This document shows positions 8,721-22,110 of a stretch of DNA of 29,320 nt, piece by piece. How positions within the stretch are numbered: the first letter of the stretch is position 1; every line of letters begins with the position of its first letter. A program made the position numbers and the translations under genes. This stretch comes from Vulcanimicrobiota bacterium (GTDB lineage: Bacteria; Vulcanimicrobiota; Vulcanimicrobiia; Vulcanimicrobiales; Vulcanimicrobiaceae), in NCBI GenBank assembly GCA_003135555.1, contig PLCF01000066.1, forward strand, positions 1-29,320. The letters are read 5' to 3'. The notes beneath the pieces were generated by a model. The model was not told the DNA's origin. It worked only from the letters and a program-made list of their open reading frames with translations, and searched no databases.

Positions 8721-8738
8721 GAACCGTTCGCGGAAACG

Positions 8739-8840
8739 GTGGAACACTGTGAGGCCCGGTGGATAACCTCACATTCTTGTGGACGAGCGCATCATCCGGG
8801 CGCTCGACCCCTTGCGGAGCCCTCACCGCCGCCGTATGAT
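8739..8840 (+). promoter_or_regulatory. Unit 1 promoter with phased GTGGA boxes
   Basis: GTGGA at 8739, 8759, 8779; TTGCGG 8812-8817, 17 nt, TATGAT 8835-8840. Confidence 0.75.
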
Positions 8841-8846
8841 CCGCAC

Positions 8847-9010
8847 ACGTCGGAGGCAACGAAGACGCGCGAGTGACGAGAAGCTCGCCGGCAGCAATGC
8901 CGATTCGAAGTTCGACGCCGTCTTGGCCGATGAATAATTGGCGAGGACACGCGCAGATCGATTCCCGTGCTATCGAAGCCGTTTGGGGAAACCCGGACGG
9001 CTTTGTCGCA
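8847..9010 (+). ncRNA. Putative structured ncRNA, copy 1 (short form, ~164 nt)
   Basis: Starts at A, 7 nt after the -10; shares stems with copies 2-4; the P3 insert is reduced to CGGCA-GCAA-TGCCG. Confidence 0.7.
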
Positions 9011-9092
9011 TCTCGACGTCCGCGGCGCCGGGGGGGCGAGCTCACCGGCTCCGCCTGTGCGTGCGAACGGGGGGAGGCCGGCCGTCTGCGCT

Positions 9093-9203
9093 GTGGATTG
9101 CGGGGATTGATGTGGGTTGGCGTGGAGAAGTCACATTTCTTGTGGACAAGCCGCGTTTGCGGGTTTGAGGGTATTGCGCCGCTGGGCGAGCTGCACGTAT
9201 GAT
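9093..9203 (+). promoter_or_regulatory. Unit 2 promoter with phased GTGGA boxes
   Basis: Boxes at 9093, 9102, 9112, 9122, 9142; TTGCGC 9174-9179, 18 nt, TATGAT 9198-9203. Confidence 0.75.
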
Positions 9204-9209
9204 GCGATC

Positions 9210-9415
9210 ACGTCGAAGGCAACGACGACGGGCGAGCGACGAGAAGCTCGCCGGCGCAGAAACGATGACGCGAGGCGCAAGTTGAGCGGCATTTGAACGA
9301 AACGCCGATTCGAAGTTCGACGCCGTCTTGGCCGATGAAAGTTGGCGAGGACACGCGCAGATCGATCCTCGTGCTGATTGAAGCCACGTAGGGAAACTTA
9401 CGGGGCTTCGTCGCA
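9210..9415 (+). ncRNA. Putative structured ncRNA, copy 2 (~206 nt)
   Basis: Same stem order; GNRA loops (GCAA, GAAA); 3' hairpin GAAGCCACGTAGG-GAAA-CTTACGGGGCTTC. Confidence 0.7.
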
Positions 9416-9485
9416 TTCCGGGGGCCCCGCCGGCATCGGCGAGCTCGATGCTGCCGCGTCACGCGCGTTCCAGCCCGATCGCGCT

Positions 9486-9596
9486 GTGAATTGCGTGAAT
9501 TGCTGCGGAACGCCGTGGACAACGCAACTTTCTTGTGGACAAGCATCGATTCGGCGTTTTGGCCTCTTGCACTATCGACGCGGGCGCAGGTATGAT
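9486..9596 (+). promoter_or_regulatory. Unit 3 promoter with phased GTGGA boxes
   Basis: Boxes at 9486, 9495, 9505, 9515, 9535; TTGCAC 9567-9572, 18 nt, TATGAT 9591-9596. Confidence 0.75.
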
Positions 9597-9602
9597 GCGT
9601 AC

Positions 9603-9815
9603 AAGTCGATGGCAACGTCGACTGCGAGTGACGAGAAACTCGCCGGTGCGGTGAAGCGAGGTGACGAGCGATGAAAGTCGAGCGGCGCGTCGAGAGAAGT
9701 ACCGACAACGAAGTTCGACGCTGTAATGGCCGGCGAAAGCCGGCGAGGACGTGCGCAGATCGGATTCTCGTGCTGACCGAAGCCGTGCGGGGCAACTCGT
9801 GCGGCTTCGTCGCGT
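9603..9815 (+). ncRNA. Putative structured ncRNA, copy 3 (~213 nt)
   Basis: AGTCGATG-GCAA-CGTCGACT 5' hairpin; GCCGGC-GAAA-GCCGGC; GAAGCCGTGCGGG-GCAA-CTCGTGCGGCTTC. Confidence 0.7.
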
Positions 9816-9853
9816 TCAAGGCTCGTGCACGCGCGCGAATTGCGATTTGGCCT

Positions 9854-9943
9854 GTGGAATGCGCGATTCGACGTGGAGAACGCAACATTCTTGTGGACGA
9901 GCGGACGTGCGGTATTGCGCAGTGATTTGGCGTGCGCTACGAT
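9854..9943 (+). promoter_or_regulatory. Unit 4 promoter with phased GTGGA boxes
   Basis: Boxes at 9854, 9873, 9893; TTGCGC 9915-9920, 17 nt, TACGAT 9938-9943. Confidence 0.7.
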
Positions 9944-9949
9944 TCGAAC

Positions 9950-10150
9950 ACGTCGGCGATTCGTCGGCGGGCGAGTAGCGAGAAGCTCGCCGGTGGGAAT
10001 CGCATCACGGAAGGCGTCAGCCCGACGGATGCGAGATCGCCGAGACGACGTGAGAACGCCCCCCTGGCTGAGATTTCGGCGAGGAGACGCGCAGATCGAT
10101 TCTCGTGCAGACCGAAGCCGCGTAGCGATTGCCGCGCGGCTTCGTCGCGT
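9950..10150 (+). ncRNA. Putative structured ncRNA, copy 4 (most diverged, ~201 nt)
   Basis: Retains GCGAG..CGAGAAGCTCGCCGG, GGCGAGGA..GCGCAGATCGATTCTCGTGC and GAAGCCG..CGGCTTCGTCGC. Confidence 0.65.
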
Positions 10151-10174: not shown

Positions 10175-10678
10175 TTAGTTGCCGTTCCAGGCGGTGAAGG
10201 GCGCTGGTTTGGCGTACGGCGGGCCGACTTCGATCGTCACGTCGAGGTGTTGGGGGAGCTCGATCTTGCGCGGATCGCCGGCGTAGGGCCGGCCGCTGAG
10301 CCAGATCGCGACGTGCTCGCCGTTACCGGGTTTCGCCCCTGCGACGTCGGCCTTTCCCAACGGCTGTCCCCAAACGTCGAAAAACTCGCCCAACGTGAAC
10401 GTGCGAAAGCGCGGCGCCTCGATATGGATGATCCCGTCGGGCGTATGCGTGTGGATCCAGTAGAGGCACTGTGCGGCCAGCGGCCGGCCGACGTCGTCGG
10501 GGATCGCGACCGGCTTGCCGTGATCCAAAACGGTGAGGTGCTGATGGATGTGCAGCACCGCGCCCTCCATCTGGTCGCAGCGAATCCCATCGACCGGCCG
10601 GCCGGCCGGAACCGCCGCGCGCACGGGTGAGAGGCACGAGAACGCGGCCAGCGCGGCCACGGTGACGAACAGCTTCAT
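10175..10678 (-). CDS. Secreted hypothetical protein with a conserved-looking His/Cys motif set (putative metal binding)
   Basis: Signal peptide MKLFVTVAALAAFSCLSPVRA; HIHQHL and CLYWIHTHTPDGIIHIE motifs; GGGAG SD spacing favours ATG 10678 over 10687. Confidence 0.8.
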   Translation of the reverse strand: MKLFVTVAALAAFSCLSPVRAAVPAGRPVDGIRCDQMEGAVLHIHQHLTVLDHGKPVAIPDDVGRPLAAQCLYWIHTHTPDGIIHIEAPRFRTFTLGEFFDVWGQPLGKADVAGAKPGNGEHVAIWLSGRPYAGDPRKIELPQHLDVTIEVGPPYAKPAPFTAWNGN

Positions 10679-10729
10679 CGATCGCATCGCTCCCGTACAA
10701 CGCGACTTCGAGCGATCCCGTTCCTGCTG

Positions 10730-11758
10730 TCACCCTGACGTGGTGTCAGCTGCGGCTGAGCCTGGTCGAAGGCCGTAGCGCGCGGCCAGCCGCCGCGCGA
10801 TGTCGGCCGCGGCGCGGCGCGCTTCTTCGGGCGCGATGACCTCGGCTTCGGCTCCCCATCCCAGCGAGAAGCGGACGATCTCGAGCGCGTCGGCGACGCG
10901 GTACGTGATGTCGACTCCGCCGTCATCGGCCGGGACCACGCGGCGATCGCGGGCGACCGTCGACGCGGCGGTTGCCGCCTTGGCGACGACCGGCGAGAAC
11001 CGCACCGTGACCTCACCCAGCGTCGCGCCGTGCACCACGCCGCTCACCGAGTTCGCCCCGTAGGCTTCGAGGTTGAAGTCGGCGGGGCGCTCGAACGTCT
11101 GCGGCGTCACGGCGGCGTCCGAGACATTGTCGACTGCGAACACCCGCATGTCGGTGCGCGTGTGGTCGTACCCCACCAGATAGACGCGGCCGTTCGAGAC
11201 GATGAAACCGTACGGGTCGACTCGCCGCTGGGTACGTACGCCGTTCTTGTCGGTATAGCCGAACGCGACGCGGCGATGCTCGCGCTGGGCGCCCTGGAGC
11301 TGCTCGAAGACGCGCTCGACGCCGGCGTCCATCGAGACCGCCTCGAAACGGATCGCGAACGAGCTGGTCTCCACGGCCGCCTCGGTGCGCCGGTCGCTGG
11401 AGCGCAGCAGCTTCTGCGTCGTCTCCTCGATGGCGCTGGCGAACGTACCGCCGAGCGAAGAGCCCAGCCGTTTGAGCGTGACCAGGCCCAGCAGCTCGCG
11501 ATGCGAGAGGTTGAGCCGGCGCAAACTGTAGCCCTCGGCAAACCGGTACTTCCCGCTGGTCCGCTCGAAGAACCATGGGAATCCGGCATCGGAAAGAACG
11601 CTCAGATAGCGCCGCAACGTCCGCGTGCTGGGGGGCTTCTCGTCGGCGATCTCGTCCTTGAGCTCCTCGAAGGTGAAGCGGCCCTCGTCGATCGCGCTGA
11701 GCAGCCGCACCAAGAGGACGACTTTGGGTTCGGCCCGTTCCTCCGCCACCCGGGCCAT
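10730..11758 (-). CDS. WYL-domain transcriptional regulator (wHTH-WYL-WCX; YafY/PafBC-like)
   Basis: N-terminal HTH 'STRTLRRYLSVLSDAGFP'; WYL core 'RRVDPYGF...YLVGYDHTRTDMRVFAVDNV'; 'FERPADFNL'; WCX 'LGWGAEAEVIAP'. Confidence 0.92.
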   Translation of the reverse strand: MARVAEERAEPKVVLLVRLLSAIDEGRFTFEELKDEIADEKPPSTRTLRRYLSVLSDAGFPWFFERTSGKYRFAEGYSLRRLNLSHRELLGLVTLKRLGSSLGGTFASAIEETTQKLLRSSDRRTEAAVETSSFAIRFEAVSMDAGVERVFEQLQGAQREHRRVAFGYTDKNGVRTQRRVDPYGFIVSNGRVYLVGYDHTRTDMRVFAVDNVSDAAVTPQTFERPADFNLEAYGANSVSGVVHGATLGEVTVRFSPVVAKAATAASTVARDRRVVPADDGGVDITYRVADALEIVRFSLGWGAEAEVIAPEEARRAAADIARRLAARYGLRPGSAAADTTSG

Positions 11759-13339: not shown

Positions 13340-13723
13340 ATGCCCCGCAAGAAGTCGCCGACCCTCACGGAGGCGGAGTACCGCCTCATGAAGGTCCTGT
13401 GGGACCGGGGGGATTCGAGCGTCGCCGACGTCGTCGAAGCGATCGGCGATCCGCCGCTGGCGTACAACACCGTTCTCACGACGATGCGCATCTTGGAGCA
13501 GAAAGGTTACGTCCGCCATAAGGCGGTCGGCCGGGCCTTCATCTATCATGCCTTCGTCGCCCGCGACGAAGCGCAGCGCAGCGTCGTGACGCACGTCCTC
13601 TCGCGCTTCTTCGACGGCTCGCCGCGCGACCTGGTGCTCAACCTGCTCGAGTCCGAAGCCGTCGACGCAAAAGAACTCGATCGCCTCCGCGAACTCCTGG
13701 ACAAGGCCAAAGGACGCCAGTAG
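13340..13723 (+). CDS. BlaI/MecI/CopY-family transcriptional repressor
   Basis: LTEAEYRLMKVLW; LAYNTVLTTMRILEQKGYV; GRAFIY; RFFDGS. Confidence 0.95.
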   Translation: MPRKKSPTLTEAEYRLMKVLWDRGDSSVADVVEAIGDPPLAYNTVLTTMRILEQKGYVRHKAVGRAFIYHAFVARDEAQRSVVTHVLSRFFDGSPRDLVLNLLESEAVDAKELDRLRELLDKAKGRQ

Positions 13724-16024
13724 GTGTTCGAGGCGGTCGTTGGTGTCGCGCTCCGCGCGATTCTCGCGAGCGTCGTTCTGGGAGCGGCGCTCGCCGCGCT
13801 CGTCTTCGTTGCGACGCGCCTGCTGGCGCTGACGGCGGCGACGCGCCATGCGCTGTGGACGACCGCGCTCGTCGCGACCGCCCTGATGCCGCTCGCCGGC
13901 GTGGGCGTGAGTGTTTGGAAGGCCGCCAGTTTTCAAGGCGCTCCGCCCCAGGCTGCGCGCCCCCCGAGCGAAGCTCGGGGCCCCCGGGCCGAGCTCGCAA
14001 GAAACATGCCGATTCGGCACGAGGGTTCTGCGCTCGCTCCATCGCCGTCGCATCAGCAGCGCACAAGTGTTGCGACGGTTGGCGCGCCCGAGCCCGCTTC
14101 GGTTGCGTCGCCCTCATTTTTCGCCGCACTCTCCGACCGGCTCGCTATCATCCGCTGGTCGCCGCGCATGTCGCGCAACCTTGCCGTCGGCGTGGTCGGT
14201 GTGTGGGTCTTGGGCGCACTTGTCGGTCTGGTGGGGCTGGCGGCGGGGATCGCTCGCGTGCGCGGGCTCAAGCGGCGTTCGAGCCCGATCGACGGCACGC
14301 TCGCCGACGAGCTGCCGTGGTTGACCGCGGTCGGCCCGGGACGCGAGATCTATCTGCGGCTCTCCTATGAAACCGAAACCCCGGTAGCGATCGGTTTCCG
14401 CCGGCCGGTGATCTTGATTCCGACCGAGCTGGCCACAGCCGAGGGGCTCGCGGCAATCGAACAACTGATCCTGCACGAGTACGCGCACTTGCGCCGCAAC
14501 GACGATTGGACGAACCTCGTCCAGCGCACGATTGAGCGCGTCTTCTGGTTCAATCCGGTCGTATGGCTGGTCGGGCGCAGGATTGCCCTCGAGCGTGAGA
14601 TCGCCTCGGACGATGCCGTCGTCGAGAAGACCGGTGAAGCCCACGCGTACGCGGCGTCGCTGTGGAAGCTGGCGCGCGAGATGCGCATGCCCGAGCATTC
14701 CGTCGTCGCCCCCGGGGCGCTGCTCACCCGCAAGCAGATCACCGTGCGCATCGAGCAGTTGCTCGACGCCAAGCGCGGGCGCCTGCACCGGTCCCCCGCC
14801 GCGGCGCTGGGCATCGCCGTGGCGAGCCTCGCCGCGGTCGCATTGGTCGCCAGCAGCGCGCCAGCGGTCGAGCTGCCGGCGGAATCTCCGGTCGCGGTGA
14901 CCACTTCGGCGCCGCATGCGGCGAAGCCCAGCGCGCCAAAGCCCAGCGCAGAGACCTGGGTGCGCGCGAAGGTCGTCCCGGCGGCGGCCAAACCCGAGCG
15001 GGTCACGACCGCCCAACATCCGCCGGCATCGGTACGCTATGTGCTCGGGGCGCTCGCCACGCCGACGCCCGTCGTCCGGGAGCGGATCGTGAAAGTCTAC
15101 GAGCGCGTCGCGATGAATCCGCCCGCCGACGCGCCGGGTGCCGCGACCGCCGCTGCGCGTGCTGCCGCCGCCGCAGGTGCTGCCCCGATGCCGCCCATGC
15201 CGCCGTTGGCGTCGTTCTCGCCCGAGATTCCGCCCCGGCCAGGCGTGAGCCAAGCGACCGTGGCCGCGCGCGCCGCACGCAAGGCGCTCGTTGCCGAAGG
15301 ACAGGATTTCGCGAACATCGGCCACGAGATCGGTCGCGCCGTACACGAGGCCATGGCGACGGTCCCGCAACAGATCGCGCAAGAAACGACGGGCTCAGCC
15401 CACCGTACGCGAACCGACGGGCTGCGGCTCTCGCGCGAACTGATCGCGTCCTGCATCGGCTGCTCGTTTCGCAACGCCGACGCGCGCGGCGTGGACTTGC
15501 ACGGCGTGCGAATCAATGGTGACGACTTCACCGGCGCGGACTTGCGCGGGGCGAACCTCGCGGGCGCGTCGCTCATCGGCGTCTCGCTGACGCGCGCGAA
15601 CCTTTCGAATGCCGACCTGCGCGGTGCGCAGCTCAACGGTGTCGAGCTCCGCGGTGCGATCCTCGACGGGGCGCAACTCGAGAACGTGCACCTGATCGGC
15701 GTGTCGATCAAAGGCGTCAGCCTGCGCGGGGTAGCCCTGCGTGCCATCGTTGCGAACTGCACCGGCTGCGATCTCTCGGGGATCGATCTGCACGGCCAAG
15801 ACCTCCACGGAATCGCGCTCAACGGCGCCGATCTCAGCCACGCCGACCTTCACAACGCCAACTTGAGCGGGGTTCGGTTCAACGGGGTCGATTTAAGCAA
15901 CGCCAATCTCAACGGCGCCGATCTCAGCAACGCGCGCCTCGACGGCTGCGACCTGTCCGGCATCGACCTGCGCGGCGCCCGGACCGCCGGGATGACCATG
16001 CACGGGACGTCGCTGGGCGACTGA
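13724..16024 (+). CDS. BlaR1-like M56 metallopeptidase with a C-terminal pentapeptide-repeat domain
   Basis: RHALW TM; HEYAH zinc motif; FWFNPVVW; EREIASDD; TM, Pro/Ala linker, then A(D/N)LxG pentapeptide repeats with CIGC/CTGC caps. Confidence 0.92.
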   Translation: MFEAVVGVALRAILASVVLGAALAALVFVATRLLALTAATRHALWTTALVATALMPLAGVGVSVWKAASFQGAPPQAARPPSEARGPRAELARNMPIRHEGSALAPSPSHQQRTSVATVGAPEPASVASPSFFAALSDRLAIIRWSPRMSRNLAVGVVGVWVLGALVGLVGLAAGIARVRGLKRRSSPIDGTLADELPWLTAVGPGREIYLRLSYETETPVAIGFRRPVILIPTELATAEGLAAIEQLILHEYAHLRRNDDWTNLVQRTIERVFWFNPVVWLVGRRIALEREIASDDAVVEKTGEAHAYAASLWKLAREMRMPEHSVVAPGALLTRKQITVRIEQLLDAKRGRLHRSPAAALGIAVASLAAVALVASSAPAVELPAESPVAVTTSAPHAAKPSAPKPSAETWVRAKVVPAAAKPERVTTAQHPPASVRYVLGALATPTPVVRERIVKVYERVAMNPPADAPGAATAAARAAAAAGAAPMPPMPPLASFSPEIPPRPGVSQATVAARAARKALVAEGQDFANIGHEIGRAVHEAMATVPQQIAQETTGSAHRTRTDGLRLSRELIASCIGCSFRNADARGVDLHGVRINGDDFTGADLRGANLAGASLIGVSLTRANLSNADLRGAQLNGVELRGAILDGAQLENVHLIGVSIKGVSLRGVALRAIVANCTGCDLSGIDLHGQDLHGIALNGADLSHADLHNANLSGVRFNGVDLSNANLNGADLSNARLDGCDLSGIDLRGARTAGMTMHGTSLGD
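13937..14000 (+). repeat. Dispersed palindromic element, copy inside the M56 coding sequence
   Basis: GGCGCTCCGCCCCAGGCTGCGCGCCCCCCGAGCGAAGCTCGGGGCCCCCGGGCCGAGCTCGCAA matches the reverse complement of 5397-5461. Confidence 0.8.
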
Positions 16025-16085
16025 CCGCCGCCGTGTTTCTTTTGCGCTCACCTCTTATTTCATTAGTTACTCGAAGGAGATCGCC

Positions 16086-16934
16086 GTGATCCGTGGACTC
16101 GCTCTCGCCGCGGCCGCGCTCGCGCTGGCTGCACCCGCGGCACCCGTGATGGCGCAAGACGACGTCGCGCGCCAGCTGATCGACGCCTGTGTGGGCTGCC
16201 GCCTGCCGAAGGATCTGCACGGCCGCGACCTGCACGGATTGCGCTTCGTCGGCAGCGACTTGCGCAACGTCGACTTCTCGCACGCCAACCTCAGCGGCGC
16301 GCAGTTCACCGGCGCGAACCTCGACGGCACGCGCTTCGACGATGCGAACCTGCGCAACGCCCAGTTCATCGGGGTCCGGCTGCGCAGCACGTCGTTCGCG
16401 CGCGCGAACACCGAGGGTGTGCGCTTCGTCGGCGCGGCCGTTTCACAAGCCGACGTCGACGGCGCGGCCGGACGAGTGATAATACACGACTGCACCGGGT
16501 GCTCGTTCAAAGGTCTCGATCTGCACGATGCCGATCTGCGCGGCATCAGGATCGTCGGCGCCAGCCTGCGCGGGGCCAAGCTCGCCGGGGCACGCCTCAA
16601 CGATGCGCGCTTGACCGGCGTTGGCGCTCAAGGCGCCGATTTCTCCCGCACCGATCTGCGCGGCGCCAACTTGGTCGGTGCCAGCCTGCGCAGCGCGCGT
16701 TTAGAGGCCGCGACGATCGGCGACGCGGTCATCTGCAGTGAAAACCAAGGCGGAGAGCGTCCCACGACGTGCGTCGACTTGCGCGGCGTCGATCTCCACG
16801 GCCTCGATTTTCGGGCGGCACGGTACTGCAGCATCGAGTATCGCAACGACTACCGCGGCTGCCGCACCGTCACGCGCCAGGAGCTCACCGAGTTCGCCCA
16901 TGCCGACCTCAGCGGCGCGCAAGCGCCCACGTAA
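16086..16934 (+). CDS. Secreted pentapeptide-repeat protein
   Basis: AAGGAG SD; signal peptide; CVGC and CTGC caps; ANLSG/ANLDG/ADLRG repeats. Confidence 0.9.
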   Translation: MIRGLALAAAALALAAPAAPVMAQDDVARQLIDACVGCRLPKDLHGRDLHGLRFVGSDLRNVDFSHANLSGAQFTGANLDGTRFDDANLRNAQFIGVRLRSTSFARANTEGVRFVGAAVSQADVDGAAGRVIIHDCTGCSFKGLDLHDADLRGIRIVGASLRGAKLAGARLNDARLTGVGAQGADFSRTDLRGANLVGASLRSARLEAATIGDAVICSENQGGERPTTCVDLRGVDLHGLDFRAARYCSIEYRNDYRGCRTVTRQELTEFAHADLSGAQAPT

Positions 16935-17898: not shown

Positions 17899-20800
17899 CT
17901 ATTCCGGATCGCTGAACAGGAACGCGAGGTCGTCGCGGGTGAGCGTTTTCGCGACGGCGCTGTCGGCCTTGACCACGGCTTTGGACAGCGCGGTCTTGCG
18001 CTCGGCCAGCGCGCGGATCTTCTCTTCGACCGAGCCGGCGGTGACCATCCGATAGGCGGTAACCGGGCGCGTCTGGCCGATCCGGTGGGTGCGGTCGATG
18101 GCCTGTCGCTCGACGGCCGGATTCCACCACGGGTCGTACAGGATGACGTAGTCGGCGGCGGTGAGCGTCAGCCCGACGCCGCCGGCCTTGAGCGAACACA
18201 GGAACACCGGCGGCCCCTCGTCGCTCATGAAGCGCTCGACCTCGGCTTGACGGTCGCGGTCCTTGGTCGCGCCGTCGAGGTAACCGTAGCGCACGTTCTT
18301 GCGGTCGAGCGAGGTCCGCATGATCTTGAGCATCGACGAGAACGCGCTGAACACCAGCACCTTGTGCCCGCCGTCGAGCACCTCTTCGACGGTCTCCATG
18401 AATGCGTCGAATTTACCGCTGGCATCGGGATCGTCGAGGTACTCCGGCACGAGCAAGCCGGGATGCGCGCACACCTGGCGCAGCCGAGTCAGCGCCGCGA
18501 GCACGTGGACGGTGGTCGACTCGGCGCCGTCGTCGTCGAACTTCGCCAGCACGTCGCGGCGCGCGGCCTCGGCTATGCCGCGATAGAGCCGCCGTTGCAG
18601 CGGGGTCAGCTCGCACTCGATCACCGCCTCGGTGCGCTCGGGCAGCTCGCGGGCGACGTCTTCCTTCGTCCGGCGCAGGACGAAGGGCTCCAGGCGCGAG
18701 CGCAGCGCCGCCGCGGCGCCTTCGTCGCCGTCGGCGATCGGCAGCTCGAAGCGGCGGCGGAACGAGGTCTCGGAGCCCAGCAAGCCCGGTTCGACGAAGC
18801 CGAAGATCGCCCACAGATCGCGCAGCGAGTTCTCGACCGGCGTCCCGGTCAGCGCCAGCCGGTGATCGGCCTGCAGCCCGCGCACGACCTTGGCGATCTG
18901 CGAGCCCGGGTTCTTGGCGTTCTGGGCCTCGTCGAGCACCAGCGTCCGGAAGCGGAAGCGCTCGAGCTGATGCGCGTCGAGCCGAGCCAAGGCGTAGGAC
19001 GTGACCACGACGTCGTAGTCGAAGATCGTCTCGTACTTGGCCGCCCGGTCGCTGCCCGACTGTAGCCGCAGCGTCCGCAGCGACGGCGCGAACTTCTTGA
19101 TCTCGTTCTCCCACGTATGCGTCACCGACGTCGGCGCAATGACCAGCACCGGAACCTCGCCTTCGATCTCCTTGCGCTTGAGAATGTGCGCGATCACCTG
19201 CACCGTATTGTGGGTGACGATAAAATCATCGGTTACGTACAGCTGATCCGGCGCATCGACCGCGATGCATTGCATTTCGCGAGGCTCGAGCGGCACTACC
19301 TTGACGATCGCCCGAGACGGTTGATACTTTGGACGACCGCCGAATCGTCCGGCTTTACGAGCGATTCGAAACGGGTTGAACCAGTCAAGAGCGATAGTTA
19401 CACGGTAGCCCGGCTTCCCAACGCGTTGTTCACCGCGATAGCGATACTTTGGAGCCGCCCTGTAATTCATTCGCGCCGTTCCGCTCAAGGATCGCACCAA
19501 GAATGCCACGCCTTCCGCGAGATCCTCAGACGCCGAGTAGAACTCCACATGCCCACGCGCATCAACGTATCCGTCCGTGTCCATCAACCCTTGCAGCAGC
19601 GCCAAACGTTGAGAAACGTCTCCAAGCAGGTACGCTGTGGGGATGAATTTCTTTTCGGACGTTCGTCCCATCAGACCATACTGCTTGAGGGTTCCGCGGA
19701 CGACGTTCGGAATGCTCGCCGCTGGCGATGCATTCAGCGCCATTCGGATGCGATATCCATATTGGCTGAACTGTACGATTTCCGTGCCGGTTGGCGTCAA
19801 CTGACGACATTCTTCGACAAGGTCCTCGTCGGCAGACGTCAGGTAGATGCTACTGCGCGACGAGATGCCTCCATCGCCCAGTAAGCAGCCCATCAGATAT
19901 GGATCGATGTCGTAACTGCTAGGCGAGCCGAAGCGCATGGGGCGCGCGATCGGAATGTAGTGACGCGCGTTGCCCGCAGCGTCGTGCAGCCGCTTCCGGA
20001 TCTCCGAGAGCGGTAAAACGCGAGGCGGATTGCCGCGCTTCTTTCGTACCGCCGAATTTACGAGCCAAAGGTGATCGTCAGAGCATACGGTCCACGAGCC
20101 GTCGCTAAAGAAGACGCGGAAAGCGGGGAGTTCTCCCTGCGGAAAGACACCCGTTACGCGTGAGATGCCACCTTCAGCGTTCATGATGCGGTCGCCCGGC
20201 ATCAAGTCACCAAAACGGCGCCAACCAGTCGGTGTTAGAACACGACAATTAACCGGTTGAGCTTTCCCGACGCCCATATCGTCCGCTAGAATTCCACCGA
20301 AACGGAACGACGACAGGTACGACAAGAAGTCCAACCCCCGGCGCTGGTAATCTCGCAGGACATGTTCGAGAATGTCGGGCGGCGGTACTTCTTCGATTCC
20401 GGCAAAGTTGCGCAAGCGTTCGCGGATGCGTTCGACTTCTGCGGGCAGTGCGACGTCGCCGAAGGCTTCGTGCAACTCGTCGCGCATCGCGACGAGTGAG
20501 GCCAGTCCCGTGCGGCGGCGATCGGTCAGCTCGGAGAGCAGGTACTGGCGCGAGCGCAGGTCGGCGACGTCGACGAGCTTGCCGCGCACTTCGGCGTAGC
20601 GCCCCTTCGAGCCCAGCAGCGCGCGCAGCTCCTCGCGCGTGAGCGGCTGGCCGCCGCCGACGAACACCGCCACGTCGAGCTCGAACCAATCACCGACCTC
20701 GGCCGCGGTCGCGCTGACCGAGACGTCGACCTTGCCGCCGCCGGCCAGCGCCGCAAGCGATTCGTCGAGCCGAATCTCGACGTCGTCCCACGACGGCCAG

Positions 20801-22110
20801 ACCGTGCGCACGATCTCGGCCGCGCGGTCCGCATCGTGCAGCGCGAAGCCGTCGCCGCCGCGCGGCACGAACCCCGCTTCCAAGAACCGCCGGGCGAAGC
20901 CGCGCGCGACGTCGGGCGCCCAGCGCACGAAGCGTCCGCCGCTGGCGCTCACCGCACCGTGCGGGCTGAAGGTCGCGAAGCCGCCGCTGTCGCGATCGAG
21001 GAAGGCCAGTCGCGCCGCCAACGCGCCGTCACGCCAAGCGGCGCGAACGACGAGCGCCGGACGTTGCACGTCGACGACACCGAGATCGGCGCGCTCTTCG
21101 CCGGTCAGGAACGGTGCGACACGAGCGATGGCCCGAATCGACGGAGCTTCGGTTGCGTCGACTGCGTCCGACGCTTCGCCGGCGGCGGCGCGAGCGGCTG
21201 CGACGACCTTGCGCGCATCGAAAGATCCGTCGAGCAGAAATGCGCAGCGTTCGGCGACCAGCCACGCAGGCGGACCGTCGACCACCGCCGCCTCGGCCGC
21301 GGAGATGCGACTGCCTTCGGGCGTTTCGAGCACCGGTGAGAAGCGAGCGCCGGTGCGCGCGGCGCGCAACCGGATGCCGCGCGATTCGACCGCGAACGGC
21401 GGCAGCTCCGAGGGGTGGCGATTCTCGCCCGGCGCGTCGTCGAAGCGCAGTCGCGGGTGGCGCGCCAGCCGGAAGAGCGCGCGCGCCAGCGCCTTGGACG
21501 ACGCTCGCGCACCGAACGCCTCTTGCACGGCGTCGTCACGCAGCATCGTGCGGTCGACGTCGTCCCAGTCGTCGGGCGGAGTCTGGTCCATCATCGCCAG
21601 GATCGCGTCGGCGTCGCGAATCACCCCACGCAGCCGCGGCGTGTCGAGGTAGAGTGCGCCGCTGAGCATCCCGCCGTTGCCGACCGCGAGCACCGGCCAG
21701 ACCGCACGCGCCCGCGCACGCGCCCCGTCCGGTTCGGCGTCGGGGAGCCAGGAGAGGTCCGGCTCGAATCTGTCGGCGGCCAAGGGCGCGAGCGCCGCCT
21801 CTTCGGCGTTGCGCACGACCTCGAGCGTCGCGACGACGTGCTCGCACACCCCGCTTGCGCCGCAGGAGCAGACCGCCCGCAGCGCCTGCGGCCCGGTCCC
21901 CGAGGCCCACTCGACCGCTGTGCTGACCGGCAAGCGCTCCTTGACGGTCGCTTCGATCCGGATCGCCTCGACGGAACGCAAAACGACGCGCTCGCCCTCG
22001 ACGAGGCTGAGCGCAGCACGGGTCAGGTCACGGGCGAACCAGGTTCCGATCTGCGCCGGAAGGCGCGACCGCCACAGCGCGTACGGGGTCAACCTACCGT
22101 CTTTCGCCAC
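17899..22110 (-). CDS. SWIM zinc-finger SNF2-family helicase/ATPase containing an intein
   Basis: SWIM CSCGASGVCEH; LRDYQ; LADDMGVGK[intein]T; LDEAQ; LTGTPVEN; SLKAGGVGLTL; DPWWNP; QAIDRTHRIGQ. Confidence 0.95.
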   Translation of the reverse strand: MAKDGRLTPYALWRSRLPAQIGTWFARDLTRAALSLVEGERVVLRSVEAIRIEATVKERLPVSTAVEWASGTGPQALRAVCSCGASGVCEHVVATLEVVRNAEEAALAPLAADRFEPDLSWLPDAEPDGARARARAVWPVLAVGNGGMLSGALYLDTPRLRGVIRDADAILAMMDQTPPDDWDDVDRTMLRDDAVQEAFGARASSKALARALFRLARHPRLRFDDAPGENRHPSELPPFAVESRGIRLRAARTGARFSPVLETPEGSRISAAEAAVVDGPPAWLVAERCAFLLDGSFDARKVVAAARAAAGEASDAVDATEAPSIRAIARVAPFLTGEERADLGVVDVQRPALVVRAAWRDGALAARLAFLDRDSGGFATFSPHGAVSASGGRFVRWAPDVARGFARRFLEAGFVPRGGDGFALHDADRAAEIVRTVWPSWDDVEIRLDESLAALAGGGKVDVSVSATAAEVGDWFELDVAVFVGGGQPLTREELRALLGSKGRYAEVRGKLVDVADLRSRQYLLSELTDRRRTGLASLVAMRDELHEAFGDVALPAEVERIRERLRNFAGIEEVPPPDILEHVLRDYQRRGLDFLSYLSSFRFGGILADDMGVGKAQPVNCRVLTPTGWRRFGDLMPGDRIMNAEGGISRVTGVFPQGELPAFRVFFSDGSWTVCSDDHLWLVNSAVRKKRGNPPRVLPLSEIRKRLHDAAGNARHYIPIARPMRFGSPSSYDIDPYLMGCLLGDGGISSRSSIYLTSADEDLVEECRQLTPTGTEIVQFSQYGYRIRMALNASPAASIPNVVRGTLKQYGLMGRTSEKKFIPTAYLLGDVSQRLALLQGLMDTDGYVDARGHVEFYSASEDLAEGVAFLVRSLSGTARMNYRAAPKYRYRGEQRVGKPGYRVTIALDWFNPFRIARKAGRFGGRPKYQPSRAIVKVVPLEPREMQCIAVDAPDQLYVTDDFIVTHNTVQVIAHILKRKEIEGEVPVLVIAPTSVTHTWENEIKKFAPSLRTLRLQSGSDRAAKYETIFDYDVVVTSYALARLDAHQLERFRFRTLVLDEAQNAKNPGSQIAKVVRGLQADHRLALTGTPVENSLRDLWAIFGFVEPGLLGSETSFRRRFELPIADGDEGAAAALRSRLEPFVLRRTKEDVARELPERTEAVIECELTPLQRRLYRGIAEAARRDVLAKFDDDGAESTTVHVLAALTRLRQVCAHPGLLVPEYLDDPDASGKFDAFMETVEEVLDGGHKVLVFSAFSSMLKIMRTSLDRKNVRYGYLDGATKDRDRQAEVERFMSDEGPPVFLCSLKAGGVGLTLTAADYVILYDPWWNPAVERQAIDRTHRIGQTRPVTAYRMVTAGSVEEKIRALAERKTALSKAVVKADSAVAKTLTRDDLAFLFSDPE
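19207..20262 (-). mobile_element. Class 3 intein (352 aa) with LAGLIDADG homing endonuclease
   Basis: Splits Walker A GK|T. Begins AQPVNCRVLTPTGW; block B SDDHLW; LAGLIDADG motifs LMGCLLGDGG and LLQGLMDTDG; block F MQCIAVD; ends VTHN followed by Thr(+1); visibly lower GC than the host gene. Confidence 0.95.

Follow-up and report, generated by a model that had tools for sequence, protein, structure and literature searches.

A helically phased module of DnaA-type boxes upstream of a structured RNA family in the Vulcanimicrobiota probably places the RNA under DnaA control

The stretch of DNA that was analysed (the window) comprises 29,320 nucleotides of contig PLCF01000066.1 from a member of the Vulcanimicrobiota (Eremiobacterota). 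It contains four tandem units on the forward strand, each with a module of short boxes, a predicted sigma70-type promoter and a structured RNA. The box module of unit 1 (8738..8786) consists of a weak box (8738-8746), the strong distal box GGTGGATAA (8758-8766), an A/T linker and the strong proximal box TGTGGACGA (8778-8786). It is followed by a promoter called from sequence (8812..8840; -35 TTGCGG, 17 bp, -10 TATGAT) and by a short form of the RNA without the P4 arm (8849..9010; model hit 8847-9018). In the module of unit 2 (9092..9149), weak boxes at 9092, 9101 and 9111 precede the distal box CGTGGAGAA (9121-9129), the linker and the proximal box TGTGGACAA (9141-9149). The predicted promoter (9174..9203; TTGCGC, 18 bp, TATGAT) leads to an RNA (9212..9415) with P1, P2 including a loop pseudoknot, P3/P4, P5 and a terminal hairpin, homologous pieces of which occur in RNA libraries. 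Unit 3 has weak boxes at 9485, 9494 and 9504, the distal box CGTGGACAA (9514-9522), the linker and again TGTGGACAA as proximal box (9534-9542) within a module at 9485..9542, a predicted promoter at 9567..9596 (TTGCAC, 18 bp, TATGAT) and an RNA fitting the structure model at 9605..9814, likewise with homologous pieces in RNA libraries. The module of unit 4 (9853..9900) combines one weak box (9853) with CGTGGAGAA (9872-9880), the linker and TGTGGACGA (9892-9900), followed by a predicted promoter at 9915..9943 (TTGCGC, 17 bp, TACGAT) and an RNA that also fits the structure model (9952..10149). Two conserved neighbours lie convergently behind the array on the reverse strand: a gene for a 170-aa protein without a Pfam or NCBIfam family (10175..10687) and a gene for a 342-aa regulator with WYL and WCX domains according to a domain match (10730..11758). 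Further along, the window contains a BlaI-family repressor followed by a long pentapeptide-like repeat protein and a second such protein (13340-16934), and, on the reverse strand, a SNF2-family helicase whose LAGLIDADG-containing insertion is probably an intein (17899-22110).

An earlier note on this DNA had described pairs of GTGGA cores 20 bp apart together with weaker boxes upstream, and a base-for-base check found the pairs at 8759/8779, 9122/9142, 9515/9535 and 9873/9893, with the 20 bp spacing in four of four units. The weak boxes are also where the note had placed them (8739; 9093, 9102 and 9112; 9486, 9495 and 9505; 9854), at steps of 9-10 or 19-20 bp, the one at 9854 lying 19 and not 20 bp before 9873. 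From the proximal core to the -35 hexamer, whose TTGC starts at 8812, 9174, 9567 and 9915, the distance is 33, 32, 32 and 22 bp in units 1 to 4, as the note had it; the module of unit 4 belongs to a short class that sits one helical turn nearer to the -35. Altogether, eight strong and about eight weak boxes are spread over 1.2 kb of the locus. The pattern GTGGAnAA-N12-GTGGA occurs four times in the 3.57-Mb genome (84% complete), each time at the RNA locus. As the four units are tandem duplicates of one another, chance was judged by conservation across relatives.

The RNA family, of about 200 nt, is predicted to be pseudoknotted. A hand-set structure of 54 pairs comprises a hairpin at the 5′ end; P2, whose loop forms a 7-bp pseudoknot with the 3′ part; P3, optionally bearing a P4 arm; P5; and a terminal hairpin. 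With this structure 93% of the cells are paired, compared to 27-40% in slid controls, and 41 pairs show two-sided changes, including five of the seven pairs of the pseudoknot, a support that is overstated by the derivation of the structure from the very sequences on which it was scored. The RNA model of the genus recovers units of the Lustribacter type with scores of 75-154 bits; some diverged units are hit in the correct position as well, though weakly. The same helices can be traced in an alignment of the diverged form, and R1 hits from outside the genus with E near 0.001-0.01 were taken as noise. Searches of Rfam at gathering score gave no match in the window or in seven other loci, and by E-value only chance-level matches appeared in the array and 12 related loci, the best being CrfA (E 0.023, below the cut-off). 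Two known RNAs were considered and rejected: the covariance model of the raiA motif RNA (RF03072) had no hit at the locus with E up to 10 in five genomes, and 6S RNA (RF00013) had none at the locus, gave sub-threshold hits elsewhere in two of the five genomes and folds differently, into a long hairpin joining the 5′ and 3′ ends around a central bubble. No description of the RNA or the module was found in the literature, where the supplementary motif lists of large ncRNA screens could hold the RNA. In RNA libraries from four soil or litter studies, contigs from relatives coincide with the RNA bodies, and three such contigs of one run end in poly(A), as RNA would; being contigs, they say nothing on level, start or strand. 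Peat RNA runs X6-X8, all from one study, gave no cover on the RNA. That RNA contigs do not extend over the box DNA was left out of the evidence.

In many genomes of the family, a second copy of the RNA lies elsewhere (L315-L319, L332, L338, L339, L329), with a full module and with neither the WYL nor the 170-aa gene within 1.5 kb; one of these copies sits upstream of mutS. In two other loci (L040 and L047, of genomes G021 and G029), an inversion has turned the first RNA unit, along with livG/livF, against the remaining array; the unit has kept its own box module.

Conservation of the boxes at homologous loci is clear among 80 units of the genus, in which core positions mostly carry 1.2-2.0 bits, compared to 0.06-0.5 bits in the upstream flank; the underlying alignment was anchored on the proximal core, not on the distal box or on the TT that directly precedes this core. 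By BLAST, the array was found in 33 of 36 genomes of the same genus and in none of 24 others, a count that takes in the unpublished genome G032. A scan of GTDB genomes for the exact pattern yielded 60 stretches, nearly all from Vulcanimicrobiota/Eremiobacterota, with Ca. Elarobacter, Lustribacter and Rubrimentiphilum among the taxa bearing it. According to HMM searches, 86 of the 92 exact matches in GTDB lie just upstream of the RNA and four before its diverged form, while two fall in unrelated phyla. Several pattern matches outside the order lay inside coding sequence and were dropped as chance. With one mismatch allowed, the pattern is present in 113 of 301 genomes of the phylum (101 of 215 in the family), as against 12 of 301 for a reversed control pattern; these counts take in the unpublished genomes G048, G254 and G277, and the compared genomes are kin. 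Some members of the family carry off-consensus distal boxes (GTGGGTAA, GTTCATAA). Module and RNA occur in two families of one order and are absent from the class-level family f3 where looked for. Within the genus, tandem duplication appears to have given two to four copies with long, short or reduced modules.

The promoter calls rest on conserved TTG and TANNNT elements with spacers of 17-18 bp; a consensus promoter scanner reported no promoter at the locus, the unit 1 promoter scoring below its threshold. Together with the window, the 34 fetched loci of the genus gave 101 hits, 98 of them full-length. Three of the 101 had no parsed promoter, 18 no proximal box, and 80 possessed one. The claim that boxes precede every ncRNA promoter is therefore valid within the window and too broad for the genus, where 18 of 98 parsed units have kept the promoter and are devoid of the proximal box. 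In the 80 boxed units, the proximal box lies 21 (seven units), 22 (22 units), 32 (48 units) or 33 bp (three units) from the -35, with nothing between. The common layout has weak boxes at -50, -41 and -31, the strong distal box at -21, the A/T linker and the proximal box. The slot between the two strong boxes holds a box in none of the 80 units, and all boxes point in one direction, no reverse-strand box being present in any slot of the genus modules.

Outside the genus, 40 parsed units that had been selected by the pattern showed distances of 32 (34 units), 33 (four) and 22 bp (two), one further unit being unparsed. A sample independent of the motif was obtained by searching 40 genomes without the strict pattern with the RNA model of the diverged form; 17 of them had hits, and after removal of five weak, partial or antisense ones, 24 of 29 hits, spread over 16 genomes, remained as units. 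In the range of 25-40 bp from the -35, the best box sits at 32 bp in 20 and at 33 bp in four of these units, and a distal box follows another 20-21 bp upstream in 24 of 24. In 22 of 24, an additional weak box is located 11 bp downstream of the proximal one. Due to these box positions, it appears likely that the ancestral module had boxes approximately 21, 32 and 52 bp from the -35, and that short units arose by a shift of one helical turn. A tree of 98 RNAs requires six changes to account for the short class, and supported branches force at least three of them; this count is qualified by a bootstrap that was still unsettled and by the possible transfer of promoters from one paralogue to another. 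That the boxes lie on one face of the helix, as the earlier note had proposed, is supported by the strictly bimodal spacing to the -35 (21-22 or 32-33 bp).

The dnaA gene of this genome lies in the usual order rpmH-dnaA-dnaN and encodes a canonical DnaA with an intact domain IV and the DHTT helix. In 14 of 22 loci, a box pair with a DnaA-trio tract locates the origin, oriC, in the interval from dnaA to dnaN, following the layout of a box pair and then DnaA-trios set out in sections of PMC8287927. A profile was built from 35 origin and dnaA-promoter regions and seeded with the textbook DnaA box; unseeded motif runs at the origins returned a purine-rich motif first and GCTGTGGAT only secondarily. 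Of the 80 distal boxes, 78 score above 6 bits with this origin profile, as do 73 of the 80 proximal ones; the profiles of the distal and proximal boxes correlate with that of the origin boxes at 0.91 and 0.84. With 19 of 280 oriC/dnaA-promoter sites and 29 of 80 proximal boxes, TGTGGACAA is the most frequent 9-mer in both sets, and the distal box varies where origin boxes vary, at positions 3 and 5 of TTATNCACA; its GGGGA form is also seen in a trio-adjacent origin box. Box 8-mers recurring in at least three of the 35 origin/dnaA regions make up 59 and 63 of 80 at the two strong boxes, compared to 83 of 400 8-mers from the flank. In a distant member of the phylum (G065), an exact match to the pair lies upstream of a DnaA-like ORF. 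Comparison with the lineage's own oriC and dnaA boxes, which the earlier note had proposed, points to the same 9-mers with the same degenerate positions, and the suggested identity of the boxes as DnaA boxes gains support from this match as well as from the same module before minC. DnaA is probably the protein that binds the module. The module was also considered as a replication origin and rejected: a DnaA-trio run occurs in none of 101 units, and the best 30-nt AT content has a median of 0.53, compared to 0.67 at oriC.

The 20-bp pair with its A/T linker differs from the layout of the genus's own oriC and dnaA promoter. Because of this, and because the slot between the strong boxes is boxless, a second factor may take part. 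A stronger version of this idea, that a different direct-repeat binder such as a cell-cycle regulator reads the pair and its linker, alone or with DnaA, appears unlikely. In its favour, pair and linker are specific to the RNA and minC promoters, the TTTCTT ahead of the proximal core hardly varies within the genus, and module and RNA are found in the order and not in family f3, although domain IV of DnaA is near-identical there. Yet the boxes repeat the 9-mers of the origin down to their degenerate positions, and the linker is outside the genus a variable A or T tract, which is more like bendable DNA than a read sequence.

MraZ recognises GTG(G/T) boxes at a period of 10 bp and, at high concentration, spaced ones too, according to portions of 10.1101/2022.02.09.479790 and PMC12957436, and for its box period it was taken seriously as a rival. 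As an oligomer on the module, it would tie the RNA and minC to the division-gene cluster. The GTGG cores do lie at multiples of 10 bp, and the protein is present in five of five and 29 of 30 genomes. However, the lineage's own MraZ boxes (84 boxes from 21 of 32 loci, 11 loci being unparsed) are contiguous AGTGG repeats over the -10, whereas GTG occurs at slot -11 of the array in none of 80 units and GTGG at slot -31 in nine of 80. The AA tail is present in 76 of 80 distal boxes, compared to one of 84 MraZ boxes, and 80 of 80 distal as well as 72 of 80 proximal boxes fit the origin profile better than the MraZ profile. Binding of the module by MraZ is accordingly extremely improbable.

With a matrix built from units outside the window, the best site of the genome outside the array is located upstream of minC, scoring 21.8 compared to a maximum of 15.2 in the reversed genome. 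Of 35 minC loci fetched, one ended at a contig edge, and 30 of the remaining 34 pass a lenient score; the four that fail include both genomes of family f3. In the genus, 17 of 17 minC loci score 11-27, as opposed to at most -8.5 when reversed. The module is followed by a conserved GCAGGG, of which the AGG keeps a distance of 22 bp to the proximal core in 27 of 30 loci, and then by GGAAC, elements that we take to resemble a sigma-H promoter; SigH is present in five of five genomes. Behind minC lie two tandem minD-like genes (L186:2412-4876), in one locus (L191) with minE after them.

The occurrence of the module at minC also bears on whether the neighbouring WYL regulator binds it, which we consider highly improbable. 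The 170-aa gene and the WYL gene follow the RNA convergently in 30 of 34 loci, the other four ending at contig edges; the two f2 genomes examined have all three of module, RNA and WYL orthologue, and the two f3 genomes examined lack both RNA and orthologue. This co-occurrence favours the regulator, but the module stands as well before minC and before those RNA copies that have no WYL gene within 1.5 kb. WYL dimers use inverted repeats, whereas the module is a direct repeat equal to the origin boxes. In addition, no DnaA-type box was found upstream of the WYL gene in any of 31 loci, a weak point against it, as a WYL activator need not autoregulate.

Beyond minC, the occurrence of boxes is patchy: before ftsA, they run in gene direction in two of six genomes, are reversed in two and absent in two, and before mutS they were seen in three of six. 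For nrdJ and dnaB, one query each found no gene in the 84%-complete genome, and the matches that two relatives have, one near nrdJ (L165) and one near dnaB (L192), were left out of the evidence. A palindrome of the CACAATATATNGTG type, presumably an NrdR box, lies upstream of ftsA in six of six genomes (G000:C84:10291-10400, L344-L348) and is preceded by three phased DnaA-type boxes in the two of them that belong to the genus. As a separate matter, the module itself was considered as an NrdR box and rejected, an ATATAT-type palindrome centre being present in none of 80 linkers. At G000:C35:7987-8244 (forward strand), a near-consensus TTGACA/GATAAT promoter follows a pair of DnaA-type boxes spaced 12 bp apart; its leader contains TTGAAAACTGAACA, which we take to be an rRNA-leader element. 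In one relative (G025), a module lies before a TTGACA promoter beside hslU in a region without an RNA hit (L189:2300-2460). In another (G255; L193:2230-2360), module and promoter are followed by the palindrome CGAAC-N4-GTTCG, presumably a LexA box, which is also found upstream of the mraZ promoter in four of five genomes (G000:C16:5300-5400; L206, L209, L210).

The earlier note had offered a datA/DARS-like DnaA sink as an alternative. In such a reading, the locus would chiefly take up DnaA or serve nucleotide exchange, with the RNAs as bystanders. Eight strong and about eight weak boxes within 1.2 kb would suit such a role, and three of the four RNA units are among the 13 phased clusters of the genome above threshold (three in the reversed control). 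The top-scoring of these clusters (36.5), on the reverse strand at G000:C9:68350-68415, has no gene identified beside it. Several features disagree with a sink and leave it very unlikely: the fixed distance to the -35, the single orientation of the boxes, the occurrence of the modules as single copies in other genera, and the density of boxes, which is highest at the dnaA promoter with nine boxes per 300 bp as opposed to four at the array. Moreover, three long contigs place the array at 1.29-1.37 Mb from dnaA, whereas datA is most effective close to oriC, as stated in parts of PMC10380432.

Regarding the effect of DnaA on the RNA promoters, we consider it moderately probable that DnaA binds one face of the helix and activates them. 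Activation is preferred because no box lies over the core promoter, the -35 is off-consensus and only shifts by whole turns are tolerated. The two strong boxes 20 bp apart would anchor DnaA, and the weak boxes at steps of 9-11 bp would be filled cooperatively on the same face, probably by ATP-DnaA. The A/T linker might bend the DNA or dock the alpha tail of the polymerase, and DnaA one or two turns upstream of the -35 would then touch RNA polymerase and turn transcription on. The opposite effect, in which DnaA would spread from the strong boxes toward the promoter, block upstream contacts of the polymerase and let the RNA accumulate at low DnaA, as in slow growth or dormancy, appears rather unlikely. 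It shares the evidence from the identity with origin boxes, and DnaA mostly represses in B. subtilis, as described in passages of PMC2533591. The extra weak box downstream of the proximal one outside the genus, its counterpart at minC that nearly abuts the conserved GCAGGG, the promoters retained in units without a proximal box and the RNA pieces in soil and litter libraries are likewise in agreement with repression. However, the core promoter of the RNA, with -35, -10 and start, is free of boxes, and occlusion alone needs no strict spacing of 21-22 or 32-33 bp.

With activation as the preferred effect, the RNA is best read as a member of a replication/division regulon. An abundant folded RNA would be made when free active DnaA is high, alongside the Min division-site system, and the long, short and reduced modules of the tandem copies would grade the response. 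The RNA may then act as an effector of replication or division status, as Sda does in B. subtilis. As a tentative proposal, possible rather than probable, this order-wide RNA would be a dedicated effector of the DnaA regulon and an RNA counterpart of Sda, switched on via the phase-locked module shared with minC, relaying replication status to division or dormancy, possibly as a ligand of the WYL regulator, with copies tuned by one helical turn. Large structured bacterial RNAs without a known function usually give no clue to the timing of their production, and here the promoter points to DnaA as the likely regulator. The putatively co-regulated operon minCD-D-E and DnaA make control and role of the RNA family directly testable, and the natural series of 21-22 and 32-33 bp offers a ready-made experiment on activation by DnaA, a question left open in those sections of PMC2533591 that deal with it.

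Among known systems, the replication checkpoint gene sda of B. subtilis comes closest to the array, having several DnaA boxes upstream of a promoter away from the origin; portions of PMC2533591 and PMC4447404 describe its positive control, with activation by DnaA via five upstream boxes. In contrast to sda, the predicted output here is an RNA rather than a protein, the boxes have one direction and a fixed phase to the -35, the module is duplicated with its gene, and the phylum is another one. In the DnaA regulon of Caulobacter (gcrA), DnaA acts as a transcription factor in a cell-cycle circuit. DnaA sites have also been predicted there before small RNAs and ncRNAs, in the relevant parts of PMC5988900 as matrix predictions from a single genome, whereas the module described here comprises several boxes, retains its sequence and phase throughout an order and recurs at minC.

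Like the array, datA, DARS1 and DARS2 of E. coli are clusters of strong and weak DnaA boxes outside the origin. MraZ repeats resemble the module in their GTGG cores at a 10-bp period, their oligomeric binder and their link to division, but they are contiguous, lack the AA tail and lie over the -10, whereas the module has an empty slot and is located upstream of the -35. The core boxes of DARS are opposed in orientation. Those of the array have one orientation and a fixed promoter phase, in contrast to datA and DARS, which according to passages of PMC10380432 depend on IHF/Fis sites and have no fixed link to a -35. The raiA motif (ModT) RNA is similar to the RNA of the array in being about 200 nt long, pseudoknotted and transcribed from its own promoter; it differs in having a P1 that closes 5′ to 3′ and two pseudoknots, as depicted in parts of PMC12968392, as opposed to a local 5′ hairpin and one supported pseudoknot. 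DnaA as a transcription factor was already known; what is new is its likely module on an RNA family without a match in Rfam, which is probably controlled by DnaA.
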